Shown here piece after piece: positions 26,456 to 56,253 of a stretch of DNA of 64,000 nucleotides. The stretch lies in NCBI RefSeq assembly GCF_902373525.1, contig NZ_CABKMN010000005.1; one strand, given 5' to 3'. The position numbers and the translations under genes were made by a program. Numbering within the stretch: the first letter of the stretch is position 1; each line of letters starts with the position of its first letter. This stretch comes from an uncultured Bilophila sp. (GTDB lineage: Bacteria; Desulfobacterota; Desulfovibrionia; Desulfovibrionales; Desulfovibrionaceae). The notes below the pieces were generated by a model. That model was given only the letters and a program-made list of their open reading frames with translations, searched no databases and was not told where the DNA came from.

Positions 26456-26481
26456 GGCTTTTCCCTTTGTTCATTTTCAGC

Positions 26482-26618
26482 GGTGACAACGGTGACAGTG
26501 GTGACAATCGAGCAATGGCAATGCTTTTCGGCTGTCACCACTCAAATATGCAATGGTGACAGTGGTGACAGGCGTAAACCCTTGCGGCTGTAGGTTTGTC
26601 ACCATTGTCACCACTCAA
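26482..26618. repeat. Iteron array (GGTGACA heptamers, direct and inverted); candidate oriV/oriT
   Basis: GGTGACA at 26482, 26491, 26500 (9-bp phasing), 26554 and 26563. Inverted TGTCACC at 26533 and 26597. 12-bp GTCACCACTCAA repeated at 26534 and 26607. Lies between the primase-helicase stop and the mob start. Confidence 0.6.
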
Positions 26619-29245
26619 TCAGGCAAGGCAGGAGCAGTTTCTTCATCCGGGTCATCAGACAAACAAACAATGTAGACACGCACGCGCCCTAGACCAGGAA
26701 GTCTTTCCTGATGCTTCAGTCTGTTTTTAGAAGGAGTGCGTAACCATCCAGCTTCACGCAGAACACGCACAGCCCTTGCCTCTGCGTATCCCCTGACGAC
26801 TTCGGCTCGAAAACTTTCCGGCAGAATCAGATACTCGGTCGTGCCGTTGCGAGTGCGCTGAAATCCCACCCGGTTGATGCAGGTGGACATTTGCGTATCC
26901 AAATCCTGAAAGCGGCTTGCGCCGTGCTGTTCGATGAACAGCCGTACCGTGGAAAGGATGGCGGCATCCTCGGAAGCTCCGGTACCGCCTCTTGCCGTGA
27001 GCCAGTCCCGGAAGCAGATTTCGATGCAGTTCAATACGTCCAGCTTTTCGGGAAGGAGGCCCAGCCGCAGGGCCAGCATTCCGGCCATGCCGCACAGGGC
27101 GAAGCGCATGGCCACACGTCGTACCTGTCCGTCAGCGCCTTCGGGGACAAGATGCCTGACGGCATCGGCCATTGCCGGGCCGATTTCCGCCCGGACGGCG
27201 TTCAGGGTTTCGATCTTCGTCAGCTTTTGCAGAAAATCATGCCCCGCATGGCCATAATGTTCGGAAGCAAGTTGTTTGATGCGATTGGCCACGGCTCCGG
27301 CATCGGGAAGGCCATGCAGGCTGGCGAGCATGGACGAGTCCACAGGCAGCCCCACGAAACGTACTTCCTGTCCGCCCCTGGATTTCAGACCGTTCTCGGC
27401 CAGCTTGTCGGAAAGCCCCAGTTCGCCGCTGGAGAGAAAGAGCAGACGCCAGTTCTGGGAACGGCGAATTCCGCCTTCACGGTTCGAGCGGCCTTTGCCC
27501 TGTCCGTTGGCCAGCATGTAGGCGCATTCGGCAAGAACTCGTCCGTTGACCTGCCCCATTTCATCCAGAATCAGCACATTGTCGCTGTGCAGGGCGGCGA
27601 TGCCTTCAAGCCCGTTGTCCGTAGCCCGCCAGCTTCGGACATGCTCAGGACCGCCCCAGACGGAGGCGGCGATCTGCAATGCCGTGGTCTTACCGGAGGA
27701 TGAGCCTCCCTCAAAGCTGAAGCCGCCGCCTTCCAGACCGGCCGGGCGAAGCAAAGGCCCGGCGAAGGCCGCGCATAACGCGAAACTGAGACGGGAGTTG
27801 CCGACGCACAATTCCGCTATCTCCCGCCAGCCTTCCATCGTTCCAGATGTACGGTACAAGCCGCCATACTGTGAAGATTGCAGCACGGTGTCTTCTTCTG
27901 TTACGCCGTAAACGGTATCGGGAAGCACGTAGACGGATTCATGCAAGCCCGTGCGCAAAACACAGCGTATCCGTCGGAGGGGCCGGCCCGCGGACAGAAA
28001 TGTCGCCAGCTTCGACCGGGTGGACGGATTGCCGAACCACCCGCCGGAGGCCAGTATGCTGTACCAGTCGTTTCCCTGCCGGAACAGCATTTCCACGGGC
28101 ATGGCCCATGCGTACTTGTTGCCGTCCGGGTCAATCCATTCCAGCATCAGGCCCCATTCGTTGCCGTCAGCTCCCCGCGTCATGCCTTTGACCAGAAGCG
28201 GAGGACCAAGCCGGATTTCCTGACTGTCTCCGTCCGATCTGGTCTCCAGCTTGTACAGCCCGGCGCGTCTGCCTTCCTTCACCAGAAAAAAGCCTTCCGG
28301 CATGGGGCAGTCGTCATCTCGCTTTCGCGCTTCTTCCACAACGGCCCGGACGGCTTCAAGGGAACGCAGCCGGTGCAGGTCGTTGAAGTCCGTCGCTTTG
28401 CCTTCATGAACCGGGCAGACGGCCAGCTTGCCGCCCACGGCCTGAGCCGCCAGAGAGGCCATCTTCTTGCCGGGATTCCCTTGTGTCTCCATGTCGTTAT
28501 CGGCACAGAGGATGATTTCACGCTTTGCATATCTCTCTCTGGCCATGACGGCCACGGCTTTCAGATTCCCGGCATTGAAGGCCACAAGACAGACATAACC
28601 GGTCGCCAGATGAAGACTGGTCGCTGTGGCATACCCCTCGGCGATCAGCAGGGGACCGTCTTTCTTCCCGTCTCCGGCGGAAAGGGAAAAGAAGCCTCCC
28701 GCCGTACGTCCTCCCTTGAGAAAGAACTTGTCCGTACCCTCGGCAGTTTGTTCCGGCAGGATGAATTGCAGACTTTGTATCCTGCCGGACTGGTTCAGAA
28801 CAGGGATAATCAGACGCCCGTCTTTTGTCCGGCGCAATCCGATGGCCGGGACTTCCTTCCGCTGTAGATAGGGATGCCCGTCATCAGCGGGCAGGGCATG
28901 ATTCCAGATGCTCGCGGCCAGCTTTGCGGCCGCCTGCCAACGATGCTCCTGTTTGGCGTCATTATATGCTTTGATAGCCCTGATGCGTTCACGCAGAGCA
29001 TCCCGCTCGGCGGCAGTCAGTTCCTTCTCAGGTTTGTATGTCCACGTTCCTTCGTCACCCGTGCACCAGTTCTTCCACCAAAGCGAGGCGGGTACATCAG
29101 GAAACGCCTTGTACGCCCCGTCCCTGCGATACGGTCTGCCTTCCGTGCCGCAACGGTGCAGGCTCCCGTCCATTTCCACCTGCTCGACAATCAGCCCGGC
29201 TGCCCGGAGCTGTTCGGCAAAGGCCCGCTGAATATCCGCGCTCAT
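26615..29245 (-). CDS. Plasmid/phage-type DNA primase-helicase (N-terminal primase region, Toprim domain, DUF927/SF3 helicase)
   Basis: 876 aa. Toprim motif [13 protein letters not shown]...ILCADND. Walker [10 protein letters not shown] and Walker B VLILDE of a P4-alpha/DUF927-type SF3 helicase. Typical replication module of integrative elements. Confidence 0.85.
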
Positions 29246-43683: not shown

Positions 43684-46527
43684 TTAGTCTTCGCGGCGGC
43701 GCAGAACGCGGATGGCGGCTACGGCCGAAAGACCGAGGAACATGACCAGCAGGTCGTAAGACGGCGTGGAGCCCACGGTGCAGCCGCTGCTGCTTCCGCC
43801 GTCGTCACTGCCGCCGCCGGCATAAACATGATCTGCGGTGCCGCCGTTGGTGGGCAGAGTGCCGGAGGTGGAAACCAGCGTCACCGGGTCAACAATAACA
43901 CCCTCGGTGCTGTCGGCGTCATAGGTGCCGTCGTTGTCGCGAATGATGAAGTACGCGATATACTGCTTATCGGCTTCAAGCGTCGGATCGTCAGCGAGAG
44001 ACAGCGCGGCCGCGGGGTTCTCGAAGTCGGCGACCCACCACTGACCGGTGGAGGAACCGATGGAACCGGCGTCAGGACGACCGTAGGCATACTCGATCTT
44101 CTTGGTGTCGGTAATCTTGTACAGCTTCAGGTTGCTGAGCTTGTCGCCGTTGCCGAGCAGGGTCATCTGGAAAACGGCGCTGGCCCCCTGATCCACGGCG
44201 GCGGTGAAGCTCACGGTACCGAAACGCTTTTCGCCTTCGTTGAGGGAGGCATAGTTCTTTTCAGCATCGGCGTGGCTGATGTATTCGGGAGCCTTGCTCA
44301 AAGCGACCTTAGTATCCAGCGCAGGCTGGTCATACGCGGCGCGGAAGTTGCTGATGAACACGTTGCTGTCAGGCAGTACGCCGTGTACGACATCGTCTCC
44401 CACGATGGTGGCCGCCACGCGCATATCCGCGATGGTCAGCGGAGCCGTTTCGGCTACTTCAAAGACGTCCTTGTCCATGATGGCGAAGTCGGCCAGCTTA
44501 CCCACCTCGATGGAACCGATGCGGTCCTCGACCTTATTCTGGTAGGCAGGTCTGATGGTGACGGCATGAAGGGCCTGCAACGTATTGATACGCTGGTCGT
44601 ACGTCCAGAACGCGCGGGTTTCGCCATCCGTGATTCGGGCCTTGTACTGAACCGTAGCATTCAGGTCCTTGCCGGTACCGTTGACCTCGATGTTTTCCTG
44701 CCCGGAGGCGGCGATGGCGTCGCCCGAGAACCGGGTCACGCCGGACTGAATGCTGCGCAGAGGCGAAATCGGGGTGACGAAGGTATCGTTATGGAACGAA
44801 TACGGCAGGTCGTAGGCGCTGGCCCAACCGGCGGGGCTTATGTTACAGGCGCGACCGGGGCCGAAGAACTTGTTCGTATGGCGATAGCCGTAGAAATACG
44901 TATGGTTGTTGAAGAACGAGATGAAGTTGTTCTGGGCCTTCATGAGTTCGCCCAGATTGCCGGCAGGCAACTTCCCACCAAGAGTCGTGTCGACGACACC
45001 GTCCTTGAAGGCGCCGTCAAGCTCTTCGTACATGTCGGCCGTGCCCTTAAGTCCGGCATAATCACCGATCATACGCTGGAGATGCTGGCGTTCCAACGTC
45101 TGACCATGAATGGAAGTATGGCGCGTGTCCTTGACTGTGGGAGCTGCGGCAACGGCTTCTTCAACCGCGGTAACCCACGCTTCCGCCGCGCCGGAACCGT
45201 TGGTATGGGTTTCCGTGCTTTGACCAGCGGCATGGTACCGCTTGATGACCTGCTTGAGGGCGTCCACGGTCATGTTCAGCGTACCTTCAAGGCCGTTGAA
45301 ATATCCGGCCTTGTTGAAGCTGTCTTCCGCGGTGTACTTATCCCAGTCGTAGAAACCGGGCTTCTTCATCCACGCGGTGTAGCCCTGCGGGGAACCGTCA
45401 AAAATGATCTTCCATGCGCCGAACAGCAGCTGGTTGGCGGGAAGATTCTGCGGCACATCCTTGCCGGCGTTCAGGAACGTAATGTCGGCGCCGCCCTTAA
45501 GCGCATCGGAAGCGTCGCCAAACGACTGATCGCCGTCGGTGTCCTTCCAGCCGAGAATTCTGCGGTTACCGGGACCCATCGCATCTATAATGACGCCGGG
45601 CTTGGCTTCATACGCATAATACGCCATGGGATGTACAAGCACGCGCAGGTCGAGCTGATCAGCAGCCAGCGTGCCCTGAAGCAGAGGAATCTGACCGGAG
45701 AGCGACACCCCGCCGCTGTCGGCGGTCGTTACGCCGGCGGTCGTGTACACTTCGGAAGCGCGGGCAACGCCACGCGCGTCATTCGTCTTCAGCTCATTGC
45801 CGAGAGGAACCAAACCTTGCGCCTTCATTTCCAAAAGCAGACCGGTAGGCTCGCCGTCGGCCCCCTTGACCAGCCCTTCGCACTCGGTATCCTTGGTGAC
45901 GCCGTACTTTTCCAGAGCAAGCGAGTTGGCTACGGCCATGTGACCGGAAATATGGCTGATCAGGATAGGATGCGTCGTACTGGCCTTGTCGAGGTCTTCA
46001 CGGGAAGGATGACGCTGTTCGGCAAGCTGCGTATCGTCATAGTTGTAGCCGATGATTGGGCTGCCGGCGGGCAGCGTATCGGCCTTTTTTCTGAGTTCTT
46101 CCACGAGCTTGTCCATCGTATCAACGGGACCGCTCAGAAGGGGGCTGTTCAGGTTGACCTTGAAAAGGTCATTGTTTCCCTGACTGGGAAAATGCCCATG
46201 ACCGTCAACAAAGCCGGGCAGCATGGTCTTGCCGCGGAGATCGACGATCTTGCGGACCTTGGCGTCGTCGAAATAGCCCTTGGCTCTGGCTTCGGCCTTG
46301 GACCCCACAAAGACGATCTTGCCGTCCAGCGTGGCGACGACGTCGGCCTTCTTCGCGTTCTTGACGTCCTTGGCCTCTTCCATCGTTTCCGTGACGGTGT
46401 AAATCTTGCCGTTATGGTAGACCGTGTCAGCCAATCTGTCCGCGGCGTGCAGCTGCATGCCGCCGCCAAGGATCAAAGCCATAACCGCCGCAAACGACAA
46501 CACATGCTTCTTGCTTCGCGTCTTCAT
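43684..46527 (-). CDS. Secreted amidohydrolase-3 family metal-dependent hydrolase (YtcJ-like) with ~340-aa C-terminal extension and sorting-signal-like tail
   Basis: AAGGAG RBS. Signal peptide MKTRSKKHVLSFAAVMALILGGGMQLHA. Amidohydrolase-3 hallmarks (NGKIYTV, DGKIVFVGS, LRGKTMLPGFVDGHGHF). C-terminus GGGSDDGGSSSGCTVGSTPSYDLLVMFLGLSAVAAIRVLRRRED: Gly/Ser spacer, Cys, hydrophobic helix, basic tail. Confidence 0.8.
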   Translation of the reverse strand: MKTRSKKHVLSFAAVMALILGGGMQLHAADRLADTVYHNGKIYTVTETMEEAKDVKNAKKADVVATLDGKIVFVGSKAEARAKGYFDDAKVRKIVDLRGKTMLPGFVDGHGHFPSQGNNDLFKVNLNSPLLSGPVDTMDKLVEELRKKADTLPAGSPIIGYNYDDTQLAEQRHPSREDLDKASTTHPILISHISGHMAVANSLALEKYGVTKDTECEGLVKGADGEPTGLLLEMKAQGLVPLGNELKTNDARGVARASEVYTTAGVTTADSGGVSLSGQIPLLQGTLAADQLDLRVLVHPMAYYAYEAKPGVIIDAMGPGNRRILGWKDTDGDQSFGDASDALKGGADITFLNAGKDVPQNLPANQLLFGAWKIIFDGSPQGYTAWMKKPGFYDWDKYTAEDSFNKAGYFNGLEGTLNMTVDALKQVIKRYHAAGQSTETHTNGSGAAEAWVTAVEEAVAAAPTVKDTRHTSIHGQTLERQHLQRMIGDYAGLKGTADMYEELDGAFKDGVVDTTLGGKLPAGNLGELMKAQNNFISFFNNHTYFYGYRHTNKFFGPGRACNISPAGWASAYDLPYSFHNDTFVTPISPLRSIQSGVTRFSGDAIAASGQENIEVNGTGKDLNATVQYKARITDGETRAFWTYDQRINTLQALHAVTIRPAYQNKVEDRIGSIEVGKLADFAIMDKDVFEVAETAPLTIADMRVAATIVGDDVVHGVLPDSNVFISNFRAAYDQPALDTKVALSKAPEYISHADAEKNYASLNEGEKRFGTVSFTAAVDQGASAVFQMTLLGNGDKLSNLKLYKITDTKKIEYAYGRPDAGSIGSSTGQWWVADFENPAAALSLADDPTLEADKQYIAYFIIRDNDGTYDADSTEGVIVDPVTLVSTSGTLPTNGGTADHVYAGGGSDDGGSSSGCTVGSTPSYDLLVMFLGLSAVAAIRVLRRRED

Positions 46528-46700
46528 ATCCGCTCCTTCGATGAGTGTCCCTCCTCCCGCTTTGGGGAGCCATACATGTTATGGGCGGATTCGGCGCGCG
46601 GAACAATCGGGTGCGCACCCTAGAAGAACTGAAAAAAACACCTATTGTCCTGTTCAAAAATTCACTCTATGGTAATGCCGGTTCGTCGTCCGGAGGTCCC

Positions 46701-47357
46701 ATGTCCGTATCCATCGTCATTGCCGAAGATCACGCACTGTTCCGCAATGGACTCAAGCTGCTTCTGTCTCTCCGGGACGATCTTGAAGTCGTCGGAGAAG
46801 CGGGGGACGGCCTGTCCGCCGTGGACGCCACCACCAGCCTGCGCCCGGATTTGCTGTTGCTGGACCTATCCATGCCGGGTCGCGACGGGTTGGACGTCAT
46901 CCCCCGCGTCCGCAAGGCCAGCCCCGAAACGCGCATTCTGGTCATTTCCATGCACGCCACTCCAGACTACCTGCGGACCGCCTTCCGCGCCGGAGCGCAC
47001 GGCTATCTCCTCAAATCCGCCGACGCCGAGGAATTCCTGTTCGCCATCCAGTCCGTGCTCAAGGGCAATCATTACATCAGTACGGAAATAGCCGGATCGT
47101 TCGTCGGTTCCTATTTAAAGGATGAAGGCTCCGAATCCGCATCACCGCTGGAGAAATTGACGCACCGCGAACGCGAGGTGTTGAAGCTGGTCGCCGAAGG
47201 CCACTCCAACAAGGAAATTGCGGGAGAACTCGACATCGCCGAAAAAACCGTGGTCACGCACCGCACCAATTTCATGCGAAAACTCGGCCTGCGCAATGTG
47301 CGGGAAGTCACCATGTTCGCATTGCAGAACGGCCTTATCCAGATGCAGGGCCAGTGA
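46701..47357 (+). CDS. NarL/FixJ-family response regulator (REC plus LuxR HTH)
   Basis: GGAGG RBS. MSVSIVIAEDHALFRNGLKLLL...DLLLLDLSMPG (receiver Asp). C-terminal LTHREREVLKLVAEGHSNKEIAGELDIAEKTVVTHRTNFMRKLG. Confidence 0.85.
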   Translation: MSVSIVIAEDHALFRNGLKLLLSLRDDLEVVGEAGDGLSAVDATTSLRPDLLLLDLSMPGRDGLDVIPRVRKASPETRILVISMHATPDYLRTAFRAGAHGYLLKSADAEEFLFAIQSVLKGNHYISTEIAGSFVGSYLKDEGSESASPLEKLTHREREVLKLVAEGHSNKEIAGELDIAEKTVVTHRTNFMRKLGLRNVREVTMFALQNGLIQMQGQ

Positions 47358-48913
47358 TGCGCCGTCCGATCCGCATCTTTTCCCCGTTTTTCTCCCTGAT
47401 GCTGGTCCTTCTCTCGGCCTTTGCGGGCAACGCCGCGCCCCATGAACTCGTCATCGCCGCAGCCAGCCCGCCGCACTTCAATTCCCTCATCCTGACCGGC
47501 CAGATGGTCGGCTCCGTCGGCGCGCAACTGTTCGCCGGGCTTACCCGGCTGGCTCCTGACGGGACCCCCCTGCCCTATCTGGCCTCTTCATGGACGGAAA
47601 GCCGGGATCGCCTCTCGTTCCTTTTCCGGCTGCGGGAGAACGCCGCGTTTCACGACGGAGTCCCCGTCACCGCCGAGGACGTGGCCTTTTCCATCCTCGC
47701 CGGGAAGCGCTACCATCCGTTCCATCCCATGCTGGAACCCGTGGCCGCCGTGGAGACGCCGGACCCGCACACCGTGCTGATCCGACTCTCCCGCCCCTAC
47801 CCCGTCCTGCCCAAGATACTGATCCCCTCGCTCGTACCGATTCTGCCCAGACACGTTTACGACGACGGCACGCCCCTGCCCGTCCATCCCGCCAACCTGC
47901 ACCCGGTAGGCTCGGGACCGTTCATGCTGGAAGCCTTCATCCCGGATCAGGAACTCAGGCTGAAGCGCAATCCCCGCTTTTTCCTGCCCGGAAGACCGTT
48001 GCTCGACCGCATCGTCTACCGCTTTTTTTGGGACCAGTCGGAAGTCCCCTCCGCGATGGTCTGCGGAGGCGTGGACGTCTACCCGTTCGCCTCCCCCACG
48101 TTCCTCAAGAGCTTCAATCGGAGCTATCCCTTCGGAGCTATTCGAGCCACGGCGTTCGCCAACCTGAACGCTCATATCCTCATCAAGTATAACCTGCGAA
48201 GAAAGCCCTTTTCCGACAGAAAAGTCCGCAAAGCCGTAGCCCTCGCCGTCGATCTTCCCAAGCTGGCGGAGCATCTCGAAAACAGGCTCACCCCGCAGTA
48301 CGGCCCCATCCCTCCCGGCGCGCCCTGTTTTTCTCCGATATCCTTCCGCACCGACATCGACCGCGCCAACAGGCTTCTGGACGAGGCCGGGTATCCGCGC
48401 GGGCCGGGGGGCACACGCTTCACCATGCTCATCGACTACATTCCGGGAACGGACTTTTTCCCCTCCGTACTGCATGTGCTGCGAAGCGATCTGGAACGCG
48501 TGGGCATCGACGTGCAGGTCCACGACTCCCCCAATTTTGCGGAATGGGCGCACCGCATCGCCACCGGACGCTATCAGGCCACGCTCGACGGCCTGTTCGC
48601 GTGGCACGATCCGGCCATCGGCATCCACCGCCTGTACACGCCGAACCCCACCAAACGGAACGTCATCTGGTCGAACACGGACGGCTACGACAATCCCGCC
48701 GTGCCGCCGCTGCTCCGGCAGGCCTCCTCAGCCGCCGATCCTCAAGAGCGAAAGGCCCTCTACGCCCGCTTCCAGCGTCTCGTCGCTGAAGATCATCCTT
48801 CGCTGTGGCTGGCAGCCATCCCGTATCTGATCATCCATACCCCCGGCGTCCGGCATCTGGAAACGACGGGGCTCGGCATCCTGTCCCCGCTGGATGCCGT
48901 GGACACGGAATAG
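47354..48913 (+). CDS. Periplasmic solute-binding protein, family 5 (DppA/OppA-like), cotranscribed with a two-component pair
   Basis: Start overlaps the RR stop (ATGA). Signal peptide MMRRPIRIFSPFFSLMLVLLSAFAGNAA. SBP_bac_5 architecture. No adjacent ABC permease or ATPase genes. Confidence 0.8.
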   Translation: MMRRPIRIFSPFFSLMLVLLSAFAGNAAPHELVIAAASPPHFNSLILTGQMVGSVGAQLFAGLTRLAPDGTPLPYLASSWTESRDRLSFLFRLRENAAFHDGVPVTAEDVAFSILAGKRYHPFHPMLEPVAAVETPDPHTVLIRLSRPYPVLPKILIPSLVPILPRHVYDDGTPLPVHPANLHPVGSGPFMLEAFIPDQELRLKRNPRFFLPGRPLLDRIVYRFFWDQSEVPSAMVCGGVDVYPFASPTFLKSFNRSYPFGAIRATAFANLNAHILIKYNLRRKPFSDRKVRKAVALAVDLPKLAEHLENRLTPQYGPIPPGAPCFSPISFRTDIDRANRLLDEAGYPRGPGGTRFTMLIDYIPGTDFFPSVLHVLRSDLERVGIDVQVHDSPNFAEWAHRIATGRYQATLDGLFAWHDPAIGIHRLYTPNPTKRNVIWSNTDGYDNPAVPPLLRQASSAADPQERKALYARFQRLVAEDHPSLWLAAIPYLIIHTPGVRHLETTGLGILSPLDAVDTE

Positions 48914-48917
48914 CCCC

Positions 48918-50809
48918 ATGTCCGCACGGAAACCGTGGGGCATCGCCCTGACCGCCAGCATCCCGCTCATGCTGTTCGCCTTTTTCTTCCTCCTCCTTGC
49001 CGGTGGGCTTCTGTTCGCGTTCCGGGACTTCACCGCCGTCAACAACTTTTCCGCGAATCGGAAAATCCCCGCCCTGTCCGCTACGGCCACACTGGTCCGG
49101 GAATGCGAATGGATCAGGGGCATGAGCTTCCGTCTGGCGCAGAGCGACAGCGAACTCCTGCTGCGGGACCGGATCGGCGCACTGCGGCGGCGCATCGACG
49201 GGCTCACCGGCACGCTGGCCGCAATCGAGGCCGCCGGACTGTACCCGCAGGAAATCCGCTCCTTCAGGACCAAAATGGGCGCCTTCACCGGCATCATCGA
49301 TGCGCTGGAGTACCGGGTCGCCGAAACCCTGCGCGTCAGAACGCAATACGCCCATCTCACCAAAACGCTCCGCTCCCTGTCCAGCCAACTGGAATACCTC
49401 AACAACACCTACCCGGACAATCTCGACCTCGATCACTGGAACCACCATATCCACATGAGCCTGACGCACCTGCTCGTCCTGTGCGGCAACGCCGACATGT
49501 CCTACGGCCTGCGCGTATCCGAGGAAGTGTACACGCAGATCAACGAGGCGCGGGCCTCGCTGACGCGGATCGACGGTTCCACGGACCCGCGGCTGCGGCG
49601 GCTGCGAAGGCTCATCCATCTGCTCTACGATCAACTCGTGCTCTCCGCGCTGGACGAGGACGGCGTGCTGCCGCTGTTTCGGAAAAAGCACCTTGCGGAA
49701 CAGGAACTCGCCCGGCTCGGCACCCGCATCGACCGCTTGTCCGACGACATCGTCGTCACCGCCGCCGATCTGTTCGCACAGGCCCGCAAGGAAACCGCCC
49801 TTTCACGCGACGGCCTCAACCAGCGGGTATCCCTGCTCTCCGCGTGGCTCGTCGCGCTCATCCTCTTTTCGCTGGCCGTGATCGCCTGCACGTATCTGTA
49901 CCTGTCCCGATACGTCATCACCCCGGTCATCCGGCTGAACCGGTGCATGCGCCTGCGCATGCACAAGGTGAAAACGCCGATCCCCGGCGGCGGCGCGGGG
50001 GAGGTCCGAGAAATGGCCGCTTCCGTAGCCTTCTTCGTCAATCAGCTCGAACGGCGGGAACAGGAACTGCAACGCTCCCACCACGATCTGGAGAAACAGG
50101 TTTCCGAGCGCACCGGGGAACTGAACAGGCTCTCCAAACGGCTGTTGCAAACGCAGGAGGCCGAACGCTTCCGCCTCGCCGCCGAGCTGCACGACGACAT
50201 CGGCGCGACCATGAGCGTCATCAAGTTCGGCATCGAGCGCGCCTTGCTGATCCTCCGCAAGAAGGATACCGAACAGGCGCAGGAGCCACTCACCGAGGCC
50301 GTGGCGCTGGTCAAGGGGCTCGTCCGCCAGCTCCGGCGCATCCAGTACGAACTGCGGCCCGCGCACATCGATCTGGGCCTGCTCAACTCCCTCGAATGGT
50401 TCTGCAACGACTATCAGATCGCGCACCCCCATATCCGGCTGCGGGTAAGAACTTCCTTCAGAGAGAGAGAGAGAGAGACGAAACCGCCCTGCCCGCCTCT
50501 CTGCGCATCGTCCTCTTCCGGGTTGTTCAGGAAGGGTTGAACAACATCGCCAAATACAGCGGAGCCGCCCGGGCGTGGATCGCCATCGTGACCACGGCGC
50601 AGGGTCTGACCGTCATCGTGCGGGACGACGGCAGGGGATTTGCTCCCGAAACGGCGGGGACCACCCCCGGCCTTGGGCTCAAAAGCATGCGCGAGCGGGT
50701 GGAACTCAGCGGCGGGACCTTCCGGCTGGATACGGCTCCCGGCAAGGGCGTGCGCATCCGGGCGCACTGGTCCGGCAGCACCCTGCGCCTATACGACAGC
50801 GAAGCCTGA
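48918..50809 (+). CDS. Sensor histidine kinase (2 TM, large periplasmic domain, HisKA_3, HATPase_c); reading frame split by an (AG)9 tract
   Basis: ATG at 48918 (MSARKPWGIALTASIPLMLFAFFFLLL). HisKA_3 H-box ERFRLAAELHDDIGATMS is in frame 0, which stops at 50540. The HATPase_c part (LRIVLFRVVQEGLNNIAKYSG...GLGLKSMRERVELSGGTFRL) is in frame 2 (48935-50809 ORF). The frames switch exactly at the AG repeat 50460-50478. Removing one AG unit gives continuous ...VRTSFRERERDETALPASLRIVLF. Confidence 0.75.
50460..50478. repeat. (AG)9 dinucleotide microsatellite inside the histidine kinase coding region
   Basis: AGAGAGAGAGAGAGAGAGA read directly. Perfect repeat, very unusual in a >60% GC genome. Confidence 0.9.
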
Positions 50810-50936
50810 TCCCTTCCCGCAGGGAAGCCCGCGGCGGATGCGGACGACGGGACGCCAACCCGCCGCCCTTGCGTCGGAAGGCGCTATGGATTAAAGCGGG
50901 GATGCCCGCACCGATACGGGCTTAGGAGAAAACATT

Positions 50937-52853: not shown

Positions 52854-54095
52854 TCACTCGTACATGGGCAGGACGTGGAACACGAACAGCACATGGCATA
52901 CGGCGGTGATGCAGCCGTACACGAGCAGCAGGACGATGGTCAGCGAGCCGCCCGGCGTCCGGTACGCGGACATGGGGAACTTCAGGCGGCTGGCCCGCAG
53001 CATGAGGGCGGGGACGATGACCGACCAGATCGTCGCCGCGAGGCCCGCCCAGCCGATGGCGGCGAGGAAGCCGTCGGGCTTGATCAGGCCGCCGAGCAGC
53101 GGCGGAAGGAAGGTCACGAGCGTCGTCTTGGCGCGCCCGAGCACGGAGTCGTCGAACTTGCACAGGTCCGCCATGTAGTCGAAAAGGCCGAGCCCCGCGC
53201 CGAGGAAGGAGGTCGCCACGGCGAAGAAGGAGAAGGCTTCCAGCATGCGCAGGATGAAGCTGCTGTCGATGCCGGAACCGGCGGCGCGGATGAGGTCGCC
53301 CACATTGCCGCCCGCGGCGATGACCGCCTTGAACTGTTCGCGGGAGATGATCCCGTCGGCGGCCACGATCCACGCCACGTAGCAGATGAAGGCGATCAGC
53401 GTGCCGTAGCGCAGACACGTGTTGATCTCGACGGGCTCCTTGCCAAAATACTTGACCAGACTGGGCACGGAGGCGTGAAAACAGAAGGAGGTCAGATAGG
53501 TGGACAGCGCGCACCAGATGAAGATGACCGCGCCGCCGCCGGAACCCTTTTCACCGATGTCCAGCAGCACGGGCAGACGAATCTGCGACAGCATGCCGGT
53601 CATGGACAGAATGAAGGTCAGCACCATGCCGCCCATGAGGATGACGGAGAGCCGGTCCACAAAACGGGTGCTCCACCACACGCAGGCGATCAGCACGAGC
53701 GAAAAGCACAGGCTCGACATCACGGTGCCGGGGTCGTTTCCGGTCACGGCCATGACCGTCTGCTGCACGGTGGACCCGCCGCCGCTCACATAGGCGTAGA
53801 CGAGGATGTACAGGACGAAGGCCACGGCGATGCCGTTGATCGTGCTCCAGACCGGACCGAGCGTATCCCGCACGAGCGTATGGAAACTGCTGCCCGGTTC
53901 GTAGTGCAGGTTCACTTCCAGAATCGCCTGACTGGAACGCAGCATCAGAAGCCACGTCAGAACCATCAGCAGCAGGGACCAATAGAGCCACATGCCCGCC
54001 GAAATCATCGGCAGGGCCAGCATCCCCGCGCCGATGGCCGTCCCGGCGATGATCATCGTCCCGCCCAATATACTGTGTTTTGCTTGAGAGGCCAT
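52854..54095 (-). CDS. Aromatic amino acid (Tyr/Trp) permease, HAAAP family (Mtr/TnaB/TyrP-like)
   Basis: MASQAKHSILGGTMIIAGTAIGAGMLALP matches the TyrP/Mtr N-terminal signature. FHASVPSLVKYF and ATSFLGAGLGLFDYMADL match conserved HAAAP blocks. 11 TMS. Confidence 0.85.
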   Translation of the reverse strand: MASQAKHSILGGTMIIAGTAIGAGMLALPMISAGMWLYWSLLLMVLTWLLMLRSSQAILEVNLHYEPGSSFHTLVRDTLGPVWSTINGIAVAFVLYILVYAYVSGGGSTVQQTVMAVTGNDPGTVMSSLCFSLVLIACVWWSTRFVDRLSVILMGGMVLTFILSMTGMLSQIRLPVLLDIGEKGSGGGAVIFIWCALSTYLTSFCFHASVPSLVKYFGKEPVEINTCLRYGTLIAFICYVAWIVAADGIISREQFKAVIAAGGNVGDLIRAAGSGIDSSFILRMLEAFSFFAVATSFLGAGLGLFDYMADLCKFDDSVLGRAKTTLVTFLPPLLGGLIKPDGFLAAIGWAGLAATIWSVIVPALMLRASRLKFPMSAYRTPGGSLTIVLLLVYGCITAVCHVLFVFHVLPMYE

Positions 54096-54549
54096 GCCTT
54101 CTCCCGTTTTTTCCTGCATGGCGCAGGTTTGGGGTGTGCGGTTTCCCTGCCGCCCGTTCTCCTCCGAGGCCGCGAGGGATGCCTTCCCGAAACCTCCGTC
54201 ATCCCGGAAAGCGACGGAGAGGGCCGAGTATCCTCTAAAACCGGCGTCAGGTCCATACCTTCCCCCCGACGGCGGGGCACGCTCGGCCCGACGGCGGAAC
54301 CCAACGCACCGGTCTCACTGCACATGCCGCCCGAAGAAAAACGCCGTCCGGCCCGGCGGCGCACAGGGGGCGGGCGAAACGCCGACGGGAACGACCGGCT
54401 TTCCCCCGGCGGCGGGAAGACAACATCCCCGCGTACGCCGCATCCCGTCTGTTTCTATCAACAATGTACTATTGTTAAGAAAAAACAAACGCGTACGCCG
54501 CACGTACCTGAAACCGTTTTCACCCCGCGCCGGGTCCGGGCGAGGGCGG

Positions 54550-54567
54550 AAGAGAGAGAGAGAGAGA
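54550..54567. repeat. Second (AG)9 dinucleotide microsatellite, intergenic
   Basis: AGAGAGAGAGAGAGAGAG in the 700-nt divergent region between the aromatic amino-acid permease (minus) and the MFS gene (plus). Confidence 0.9.
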
Positions 54568-54834
54568 GCCGTTTCAGTCCTCTTTGTCACAGAGAACGCG
54601 TGGCCTGAGTGTCCCGTGCGGGAGAGAACCGTTTCGGGTGTTCGCGTCGAAGGGAGGCTGAACGGGCATATTCCCGTATGGGGCAGGACCATGTGAAAAT
54701 CCCCCCACGCTTTCGGGGAGACGGGACAGCTTGAAGAGCGGGCATCGTATTGGTATATCAACACTATATCCGGACAAACGGCCTCCGGCGAGGCCCGCGT
54801 CCATGACGCCGAAACAGACAAGGCGGTGTATCGT

Positions 54835-56253
54835 ATGACGTTTTCCATCAAAAAACTGGCCGGACTGCCCGCCATCGCGGCGGCGGCCTTCTTCATGCAG
54901 GCGCTGGACGCCACCATCCTCAACACCGCCCTCCCCGCCGTGGCCCACAGCCTCGACCGTTCGCCGCTGGCGATGCAGCTTGCCGTAGTGGGCTACACGC
55001 TCACCGTCGCCATGCTCATCCCCGTGAGCGGCTGGCTGGCGGACCGTTTCGGGACGCGCCGGGTGTTCATCTTCGCCGTCTCCCTGTTCATCCTCGGTTC
55101 GCTCCTGTGCGCGCTGTCCGGCACGCTGTGCATGCTCGTAGCCTCGCGGGTCCTTCAGGGCGTCGGCGGCGCCATGATGATGCCGGTGGCGCGCCTCGCC
55201 GTACTGCGGGCCTATCCCCGCTCCGAGCTGGTGTCCGTGCTCAACTTCATCAGCATTCCCGGCCTCGTCGGTCCGGTGGTGGGGCCCCTGCTCGGCGGGT
55301 GGCTCGTCACCTACGCCACATGGCACTGGATATTCCTGATCAACATCCCGGTCGGGCTGATCGGCATCGTCTACGCCGCCCGGATCATGCCGAACTTCAC
55401 CGCCGCGCGCGGCTCCTTCGATCTGCTCGGCTTCTTCCTGTTCGGGCTCGGGCTCGTCGCCATCTCCAGCGGGCTGGAAGTGTTCGGCGACCGGGTGGGC
55501 CCCGACGTCCTCGCCCCGGCGCTGATCGTCGCCGGAGCCGTGCTGCTCGTCCTGTACGTGCGCCACGCCAGACGCCGCCCCCATCCCCTGATCGGGCTCG
55601 GCGTGTTTCGCACCCGCACCTTTTCCGTGGGCATCGGCGGGAACATCGTCTCCCGGCTCGGCACGGGCTGCGTGCCGTTCCTCATGCCGCTGATGCTCCA
55701 AGTCGGTCTCGGCTACCCCGCGCTGGTGGCGGGCGCCATGATGGCCCCCACCGCCGTGGGCTCCATCGCCGCCAAAACCTTCGTCATGAAGGTCCTCAAC
55801 CGGTTCGGCTACCGGGCCACCCTGACCGGCGTGACCGTGTGCATCGGCCTCATGATCGCCCAGTTCGCCCTCCAGACGCCCACGCTGCCCCTGTGGCTGC
55901 TCATCCTGCCGCTCTTCCTGCTCGGCATGGCCATGTCCACACAGTTCACCGCCATGAACAGCATCACCCTCGGCGACCTGTCCACGGAAGACGCCAGCAC
56001 CGGCAACAGCCTCCTGTCCGTCACCCAGCAGCTTTCCATCAGCTTCGGCGTGGCGAGCAGTACGGTCGTGCTCCGGTTCTACAACTCGTTCGCGTCCGGC
56101 TCCCTGCTCGACCACTTCCATTATACCTTCATCACCATCGGCGGGATCACCCTGCTCGCCGCATTCGTGTTCATGCTCCTGCGCAGGGACGACGGGGACA
56201 ACCTGCTTCCCGGCCGCAAGCGCCCCGTTTTCGAGACGACGAACCGGAACTGA
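54835..56253 (+). CDS. MFS transporter, DHA2 (14-TMS, EmrB/MdtD-like) family
   Basis: [40 protein letters not shown] and [13 protein letters not shown] (MFS motif A). 14 predicted TMS. Confidence 0.85.

Follow-up and report, generated by a model that had tools for sequence, protein, structure and literature searches.

Repeat-driven phase variation is textbook knowledge for a few host-adapted pathogens of the genera Haemophilus, Neisseria, Helicobacter, Campylobacter and Bordetella, and to our knowledge there are few records of it for anaerobic, GC-rich bacteria that live in the gut. Here we analysed a 64,000-nucleotide stretch of DNA (the window) from an uncultured Bilophila sp. of the Desulfovibrionaceae (assembly GCF_902373525.1, contig NZ_CABKMN010000005.1). 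A histidine-kinase gene in this window contains an (AG)9 microsatellite, hereafter tract 1. Tract 1 probably acts as a slippage-driven ON/OFF switch of the kinase, that is, as phase variation of a two-component system by a simple sequence repeat (SSR), with an adjacent exported amidohydrolase as its likely target.

Phase variation of bvgS in Bordetella pertussis is said to result from a frameshift in a poly-C run. The Bilophila locus resembles bvgS in that an SSR inside a sensor-kinase gene shifts the reading frame and would switch the kinase, and presumably its regulon, ON and OFF in a heritable and in principle reversible manner. The two cases differ in three respects. The repeat in bvgS is a homopolymer, whereas it is a dinucleotide in Bilophila, and BvgS is a BvgS-type hybrid kinase, whereas the Bilophila enzyme belongs to the HisKA_3 family. 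Furthermore, B. pertussis is pathogenic, its virulence regulon is defined, and switching was reportedly shown there in culture, whereas we infer switching in Bilophila from metagenome assemblies.

Dinucleotide repeats of the CT/AG type are found in the coding regions of Helicobacter pylori outer-membrane protein genes such as sabA. H. pylori is an AT-rich organism without MutS/MutL mismatch repair, and its adhesin repeats are localized in the 5′ region encoding the signal peptide. As (CT)n reads (AG)n on the other strand, sabA and the Bilophila kinase gene share the repeat as well as the logic of translational frameshifting. However, the Bilophila repeat lies deep in a regulator gene of a member of the Desulfovibrionaceae with 60% GC, and not at the 5′ end of an adhesin gene. 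The switching repeats of the adhesin gene sabA are situated in both the promoter and the coding region (PMC2715451).

In the two-component system FlgS/FlgR of Campylobacter jejuni, frequent insertions and deletions (indels) in short repeats of both genes alter the colonization phenotype (PMC8355987). Repeat indels in two-component system genes are thus common to both organisms, but the C. jejuni repeats are poly-A/T runs of fewer than seven units whose changes were called not reversible (PMC8355987), whereas the Bilophila tract ranges from 8 to ~28 dinucleotide units and covers all frames. Localized hypermutation via repeats is also characteristic of the contingency loci of Haemophilus and Neisseria (PMC2651432, PMC5084427, PMC11868660). 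As in these loci, the repeat gives a single gene a very high local indel rate in an otherwise stable genome. The difference is that contingency loci mostly carry tetranucleotide or homopolymer repeats in genes for surface structures. Of the features of a contingency locus, three were found at tract 1: an SSR within a reading frame, a change between full-length and truncated product depending on repeat number, and length polymorphism between conserved flanks.

Our search of the published literature yielded no paper tying Bilophila or Desulfovibrio to SSR phase variation and none on a Bilophila phasome. SSR phase variation of a two-component system as such is already known; what is new here is the unusual host, and the case is backed by population data, not by experiment.

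Tract 1 and the frame split in the window

An earlier note on the window, prepared from its letters alone, had drawn attention to an (AG)9 repeat at the point where the kinase gene changes frame. The tract proved to be perfect. On the plus strand, AGAGAGAGAGAGAGAGAG occupies positions 50460-50477 and is followed by an A at 50478, giving 19 alternating bases (50460-50478), and the parts of the gene on either side of it are in different frames. The note had also called perfect dinucleotide repeats of this length rare in GC-rich bacteria. The GC content of the window is 60.1%, and when the window was shuffled 100 times with its dinucleotides preserved, the expected number of 18-mers was 0.00 with up to two mismatches allowed. 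No dinucleotide run of six or more units occurred in a 314-kb control consisting of sister Bilophila and 15 other genomes.

The open reading frame of the kinase begins at 48894 (database start at 48918, MSARKPW), crosses tract 1 and stops at 50540, which results in a product of 540 amino acids (aa). The 5′ part of the gene (48918-50459, plus strand) encodes a transmembrane (TM) helix, a predicted all-helical extracytoplasmic domain, a second TM helix, a coiled coil and a HisKA_3 domain with the H-box ELHDDIG. As the note had stated, the TM, periplasmic and H-box portions upstream of the tract are intact. The 3′ part (50479-50809, plus strand), which encodes the N-box helix together with the remaining HATPase_c sequence, lies in another frame in the window, with two extra bases. 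Deletion of one AG unit in silico restored a kinase of 637 aa and addition of two units one of 639 aa, exactly the two repairs that had been proposed. Natural alleles with (AG)8 and (AG)11 encode kinases of 629 and 631 aa, respectively. Judged from its sequence, the switch would be in the OFF position in the window. Annotation pipelines return a 540-aa 'histidine kinase' or split genes for this locus, and the switch is thereby hidden.

Tract 1 encodes Arg-Glu repeats in every frame and contains a stop codon in none. It is therefore free to lengthen, as no stop is ever created.

The frame split could, in principle, reflect a consensus or assembly error restricted to the window, with a true tract of (AG)8 or (AG)11 and an intact kinase. 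Dinucleotide runs are error-prone in library PCR and assembly, and several contigs break at AG tracts. On the other hand, L033, an independent assembly of another sample that is set apart by a single-nucleotide polymorphism (SNP) beside the tract, carries nine units both at tract 1 and at the second AG tract of the window described below. In addition, the NCBI protein WP_294509782.1 ('uncultured Bilophila sp.', Desulfovibrionaceae) is identical to the 540-aa product of the window, as is the cluster member P0121. Regardless of the state of the window, assemblies produced by different assemblers do vary in tract length, and a switch at the level of the species would be unaffected. We therefore regard such an error, which had been offered as the alternative to phase variation, as most improbable.

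Tract length among assemblies of the species

With the repaired kinase as query, a 90%-identity cluster was obtained whose 16 sequences stem from various public assemblies, and the underlying contigs were fetched. Members of the cluster had lengths of 540, 544, 588, 592, 629, 631, 635 and 671 aa and diverged essentially only past '...RLRVRTSF'. Three forms were distinguished. In the in-frame form, SF(RE)n is followed by DETALPASL and the full ATPase domain; it is represented by P0133 (629 aa), P0001 (631 aa) and P0129 (635 aa), with the inserts RERER, RERERER or RERERERERER. In the first out-of-frame form, (RE)n continues into TKPPCPP and a stop soon thereafter (P0121 and P0128, 540 aa; P0130, 544 aa). 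The second continues into RNRPARLSA (P0131, 588 aa; P0122, P0123 and P0126, 592 aa; P0132, 671 aa). Two members of the cluster are shorter. P0124 (320 aa) was considered as a case of pseudogenization and rejected, as its contig is an OPERA long-read hybrid in which all neighbouring genes are frameshifted, which indicates sequencing error. P0134 (369 aa) stems from a contig of 2.5 kb.

At the DNA level, the window was compared with 16 other assemblies of the species. Tract 1 comprised nine units in the window and in L033, eight in L002, ten in L008, 11 in L001, 13 in L009, 15 in L004, 16 in L005-L007 and L043-L046, 17 in L003 and 28 in the long-read hybrid L047. Contig L036 begins inside a run of at least 27 units. 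The flanks of the tract were constant across the assemblies except for two scattered SNPs. All three frames were represented, and the kinase was ON with 8, 11 and 17 units (629, 631 and 635 aa). This range of unit numbers among conspecific assemblies, with all frames present and the flanks kept, bears out the earlier view of the tract as slippage-prone.

The window contains a second perfect (AG)9 repeat, which the earlier note had overlooked. This tract 2 (54551-54568, plus strand) is non-coding and located in a 706-bp spacer between the genes for a tryptophan/tyrosine permease (52854-54119, minus strand) and an efflux protein of the MFS type (54835-56253, plus strand). In 16 assemblies, tract 2 had 9, 9, 10, 11, 12, 13, 13, 14, 17, 18, 18, 22, 22, 23, 23 and 26 units.

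Near-identical haplotypes, with 0-1 SNP over 12-19 kb, differed at the AG tracts only. L043 and L004 have no SNP over 11.7 kb and 16 versus 15 units at tract 1. One SNP over 15.6 kb separates L002 from L004, with 8 versus 15 units at tract 1. L001 and L008 (one SNP over 12.4 kb) have 11 versus 10 units at tract 1 and 12 versus 13 at tract 2, and L034 and L035 (no SNP over 19 kb) have 22 versus 26 at tract 2. Likewise, no SNP separates L006 from L007 between the kinase gene and tract 2 (5.6 kb), yet tract 2 has 11 versus 13 units. As a rough estimate from these sequences, the rate of change of the tracts may exceed that of a single base by about four orders of magnitude. The window and L033 represent one haplotype with nine units at both tracts; short tracts thus do not change in every sample. 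Instability of dinucleotide runs is known to increase with length, consistent with slipped-strand mispairing (PMC7015867).

Two scans of JGI metagenomes gave 0 and 1 matches, and the sole locus (L032) ends at the tract. The matches listed in a scan of genome contigs with an alignment of the kinase were distant kinases, with no Bilophila genome among them. Six contig ends lie inside tract 2. Such breaks are compatible with length heterogeneity of the tracts.

Taken together, a relative of the bile-associated pathobiont Bilophila wadsworthia has a microsatellite that differs in length between otherwise identical haplotypes. Switches of this kind are detectable from public metagenome assemblies alone, and tract 1 provides a PCR-sized marker for the within-host population dynamics of the organism.

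Kinase domains and predicted ON and OFF products

The repaired kinase matched HisKA_3 (PF07730) at residues 424-490 with 43.7 bits and HATPase_c (PF02518) at residues 540-624 with 44.9 bits. With both domains present and a gene for a receiver and GerE/LuxR-type regulator adjacent, the locus encodes a two-component system of the HisKA_3/NarL family. The designation of the kinase as 'NarX-type' in the earlier note is appropriate in this broad sense and did not hold in the strict sense. The NCBIfam models for NarX and NarQ gave 48.4 bits against a cut-off of 578 and 49.5 bits against a cut-off of 553, respectively, and only the kinase core aligned.

An AlphaFold model was calculated for the (AG)11 allele from a shallow alignment of 12 sequences and had a mean predicted local distance difference test (pLDDT) score of 76. 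In this model, RERERER corresponds to residues 515-521, one of the few segments with a pLDDT below 50, and lies between the strand at 507-512 and the N-box helix at 528-549. The repeat is thus predicted to sit in a surface loop, the first of the ATP-binding domain, and the model is consistent with inserts of 5, 7 and 11 residues being tolerated by the kinase. The split had been placed exactly between HisKA_3 and HATPase_c. This is correct with respect to the Pfam matches, but the predicted model puts it in the first loop of the ATPase domain and not in an interdomain linker.

The following sequence of events probably explains these data. A hypermutable (AG)n microsatellite would have arisen in one uncultured gut species of Bilophila. 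Replication slippage would then add or remove AG units, and homopurine/homopyrimidine runs, which are able to form triplexes, may help in this process. Unit numbers of 2 modulo 3 (8, 11, 17 and so on) would give a full-length kinase with an Arg-Glu insert of 5, 7 or 11 residues, whereas with other unit numbers translation would continue out of frame and end 19 or 66 codons further on. The OFF product would retain its sensor and membrane-anchoring parts as well as the phospho-acceptor helix. Without an ATPase domain it should be incapable of autophosphorylation, and kinase function would most probably be lost. The length of tract 1 would thereby decide whether a working kinase is present in the whole sensory pathway. 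As a result, a binding-protein-dependent two-component system would exist in both ON and OFF states across the strain population, and these states would be heritable and in principle reversible. Slippage as the mechanism is suggested by the pattern of length changes; switching within a clone on ecological time scales may likewise occur and may bring a selective benefit.

Evidence for and against a functional switch

Several observations weigh against tract 1 as a functional switch. The kinase was ON in only 3 of the 11 strain or sample groups, which matches a random third; since random tract length yields one third, the ON share gives no sign beyond chance. Tract 2, although non-coding and 4.1 kb away from tract 1, is equally variable. 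Hypermutability is therefore tied to the sequence itself; it is a property of the repeat and no evidence of selection for switching. Furthermore, L034 and L035 lack the whole module of amidohydrolase, regulator, binding-protein and kinase genes (window 43696-50812; L034:5651-6075). The deletion runs from the stop codon of the amidohydrolase gene to just past that of the kinase gene and shows 7 bp of microhomology at its junction. The four-gene module is thus dispensable in some hosts, as these two strains have deleted it.

A further point of this kind is that all tract lengths were taken from consensus assemblies. De Bruijn graphs collapse a period-2 run once it exceeds k, and the shortest path has k bases for tract 1 and k-1 for tract 2. 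By our own reasoning, tracts given as 10, 16 or 27 units, which correspond to the SPAdes settings k=21, 33 and 55, may therefore be longer in reality. L036 and L037, each with 54 nt of pure repeat at a contig end, fit this pattern. For 16 units, collapse at k=33 as the sole explanation was rejected, as a MEGAHIT k141 contig and SPIRE scaffolds also show this value, which must be at least partly real. The values of 8, 9, 11, 13, 15 and 17 units correspond to no common k. Length polymorphism and all three frames remain after every suspect value is dropped.

A neutral microsatellite in a dispensable, decaying kinase gene, whose length changes are noise in a module heading for loss, would be in line with the random ON share, with the variability of the non-coding tract and with the precise deletion of the module. 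The absence of 27 nt beside the tract in P0003 would also agree with decay. The kinase gene itself does not look like a decaying gene. When tract 1 was excised in silico, 11 of 11 short-read alleles were open over 624 codons, with no further frameshift or stop. Among conspecific, tract-bearing alleles there were 16 variable sites, 12 synonymous and four nonsynonymous (two of them singletons), which differs strongly from the neutral expectation of about three quarters nonsynonymous changes (binomial P = 4e-5). The dN/dS ratio against the sister species was 0.29 overall and 0.30 downstream of the tract. Among the alleles examined as DNA, an extra frameshift was found solely in L047, an error-rich long-read hybrid in which every neighbouring gene is frameshifted. 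Marks of a pseudogene outside the tract were thus not found in the 11 short-read alleles, which lack disabling mutations, and the polymorphism is mostly synonymous.

Because the alleles are intact outside the tract and the polymorphism is mostly synonymous, a live, switchable gene is favoured, and we consider neutral decay rather unlikely. In our reading of these sequences, the kinase gene appears to be functional and to be selected often enough to remain intact. Strains in the human gut seem to cope well with the OFF state, and complete loss seems to be tolerated in some lineages too.

Tract 2, its spacer and a foreign element

The portion of the spacer that contains tract 2 has no aligned counterpart in the sister species, which lacks the tract. 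Promoter scans revealed no sigma-70 site around tract 1 or tract 2; an effect of tract 2 through spacer length is therefore without support. Rfam searches of the window gave three tRNAs only and nothing near either tract.

Beside the start of the permease gene, a leader of about 240 nt (within 54120-54520, minus strand) is almost identical in the sister species, and two terminator-like hairpins precede it on the permease strand (54358-54342 and 54507-54489). The leader had no Rfam match and could be an attenuator or a leader RNA.

In L005-L007, an AT-rich foreign segment starts exactly at the 3′ edge of tract 2 (L005:15669-21779; window 54568/54569) and takes the place of the usual downstream sequence. 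Its genes code for an HTH_36 protein and for homologues of the type IV secretion proteins DotH/IcmK and DotI/IcmL. The right junction of the segment was not recovered, and all contexts found with the MFS protein of the window were element-free. Searches with the end of the element in viral contigs and with its first 6 kb in plasmids gave no match.

The AG tracts might accordingly be tied to recombination or to a mobile element, for example as attachment sites of an integrative conjugative element, with lengths altered by integration and excision. The exact position of the type IV secretion segment at the edge of tract 2 would fit this idea, as would the finding that both tracts are species-specific insertions only 4.1 kb apart. 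However, no such element was present at tract 1 in any assembly, tract 2 varied among element-free strains, and single-unit changes between identical haplotypes fit slippage. As the right junction is also missing, we judge an origin of the length changes in mobile DNA to be highly unlikely.

A broader possibility is a localized (AG)n hypermutation system, in which tracts arise de novo at several loci and combine a kinase toggle over a cassette-swapping amidohydrolase, a divergent promoter spacer and hot spots for conjugative elements. We regard this as doubtful. If it were true, a 'phasome' would exist in a gut commensal or pathobiont that is GC-rich and does not belong to the classic phase-variable pathogens.

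The gene module around the kinase

Upstream of the kinase gene and on the same strand lie the genes of its presumed partners. The response regulator gene (46701-47357, plus strand) encodes a protein of the NarL/LuxR type (Response_reg, 5e-26; GerE, 3e-21), presumably the partner of the kinase. It is followed by a gene for a family-5 periplasmic solute-binding protein (47354-48913, plus strand; Pfam SBP_bac_5, E=2e-64), the presumed co-sensor. No ABC-transporter genes are found beside the SBP_bac_5 gene. The closest solved structures of its product are binders of opines, peptides and nickel, at 1e-34 or weaker.

This arrangement resembles TorT/TorS, in which a periplasmic binding-protein gene without a transporter also lies beside a gene for a kinase with an all-helical extracytoplasmic domain. 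The similarity does not extend to the proteins themselves. The Bilophila kinase has a HisKA_3 core with a NarL-type regulator and is not a TorS hybrid, and the binding protein belongs to family 5 and not to TorT. The TorS model gave a faint match to the Bilophila kinase, with 36 bits against a cut-off of 676.

Divergently transcribed from these genes is the gene for an exported Amidohydro_3 protein of 947 aa (43684-46527, minus strand) with a signal peptide and a C-terminal anchor consisting of a Cys, a TM helix and an Arg-rich tail. It is the likely target of the two-component system. A stochastic switch may thereby be connected, in a way that can be tested, to an exported amidohydrolase whose alleles are hypervariable.

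The core of the amidohydrolase gene (43807-46146, minus strand) has only ~65% nucleotide and ~57% aa identity to the allele of all other conspecific assemblies except L033. The flanks of this divergent core are ~99% identical, and the signal peptide (~100 aa) and the C-terminal anchor (~50 aa) are conserved. This pattern suggests that alleles of a surface protein are exchanged in the manner of cassettes. The C-terminus (43684-43860) contains GGSSSGC, a hydrophobic helix and then RRRED, and resembles a sorting signal of the MYXO-CTERM type; the MYXO-CTERM match, at 12.9 bits and E=0.11, did not reach the cut-off of 20 bits.

In sister Bilophila, a gene for a glycyl-radical enzyme (PFL-like and Gly_radical domains; L011:1997-4489) lies between the adh_short and amidohydrolase genes. 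It is absent in the species analysed here.

Sister species and tract-less alleles

Kinases of sister Bilophila form a second cluster with 85% identity and the same gene order, in which the corresponding segment reads SFDENALP without a repeat. Ten of its 13 members have the full length of 624 aa. The homologous site of the sister species consists of TTC-GA-CGAA and has no tract 1; the tract is therefore a species-specific expansion or insertion. An always in-frame kinase without a repeat in relatives, which the earlier note had named as evidence that would count against a switch, was thus found for the sister species only and not within the species itself.

In P0125, P0127 and L010 (11437-12149), the kinase gene changes cleanly from the sequence of this species to the tract-less sister type at a point 40-100 nt before the tract position, and the contig of L010 ends some 600 nt past this point. 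These sequences may be chimeric contigs or natural recombinants that 'repair' the switch, and they were not used as evidence.

P0003, from a 7.1-kb contig in ENA, shows an in-frame loss of 27 nt encoding IRLRVRTSF, the first β-strand of the ATPase domain, directly 5′ of a tract that encodes RERERER. Either a deletion beside the tract or an error of assembly may account for this loss.

Elsewhere in the window, at 26481-26670, a cluster of 9-bp repeats was observed, with three copies of CGGTGACAA, two of TGGTGACAG and two of the inverted form TTGTCACCA, followed by (ACAA)3. Judging by its sequence, this cluster looks like a set of iterons or an operator array.

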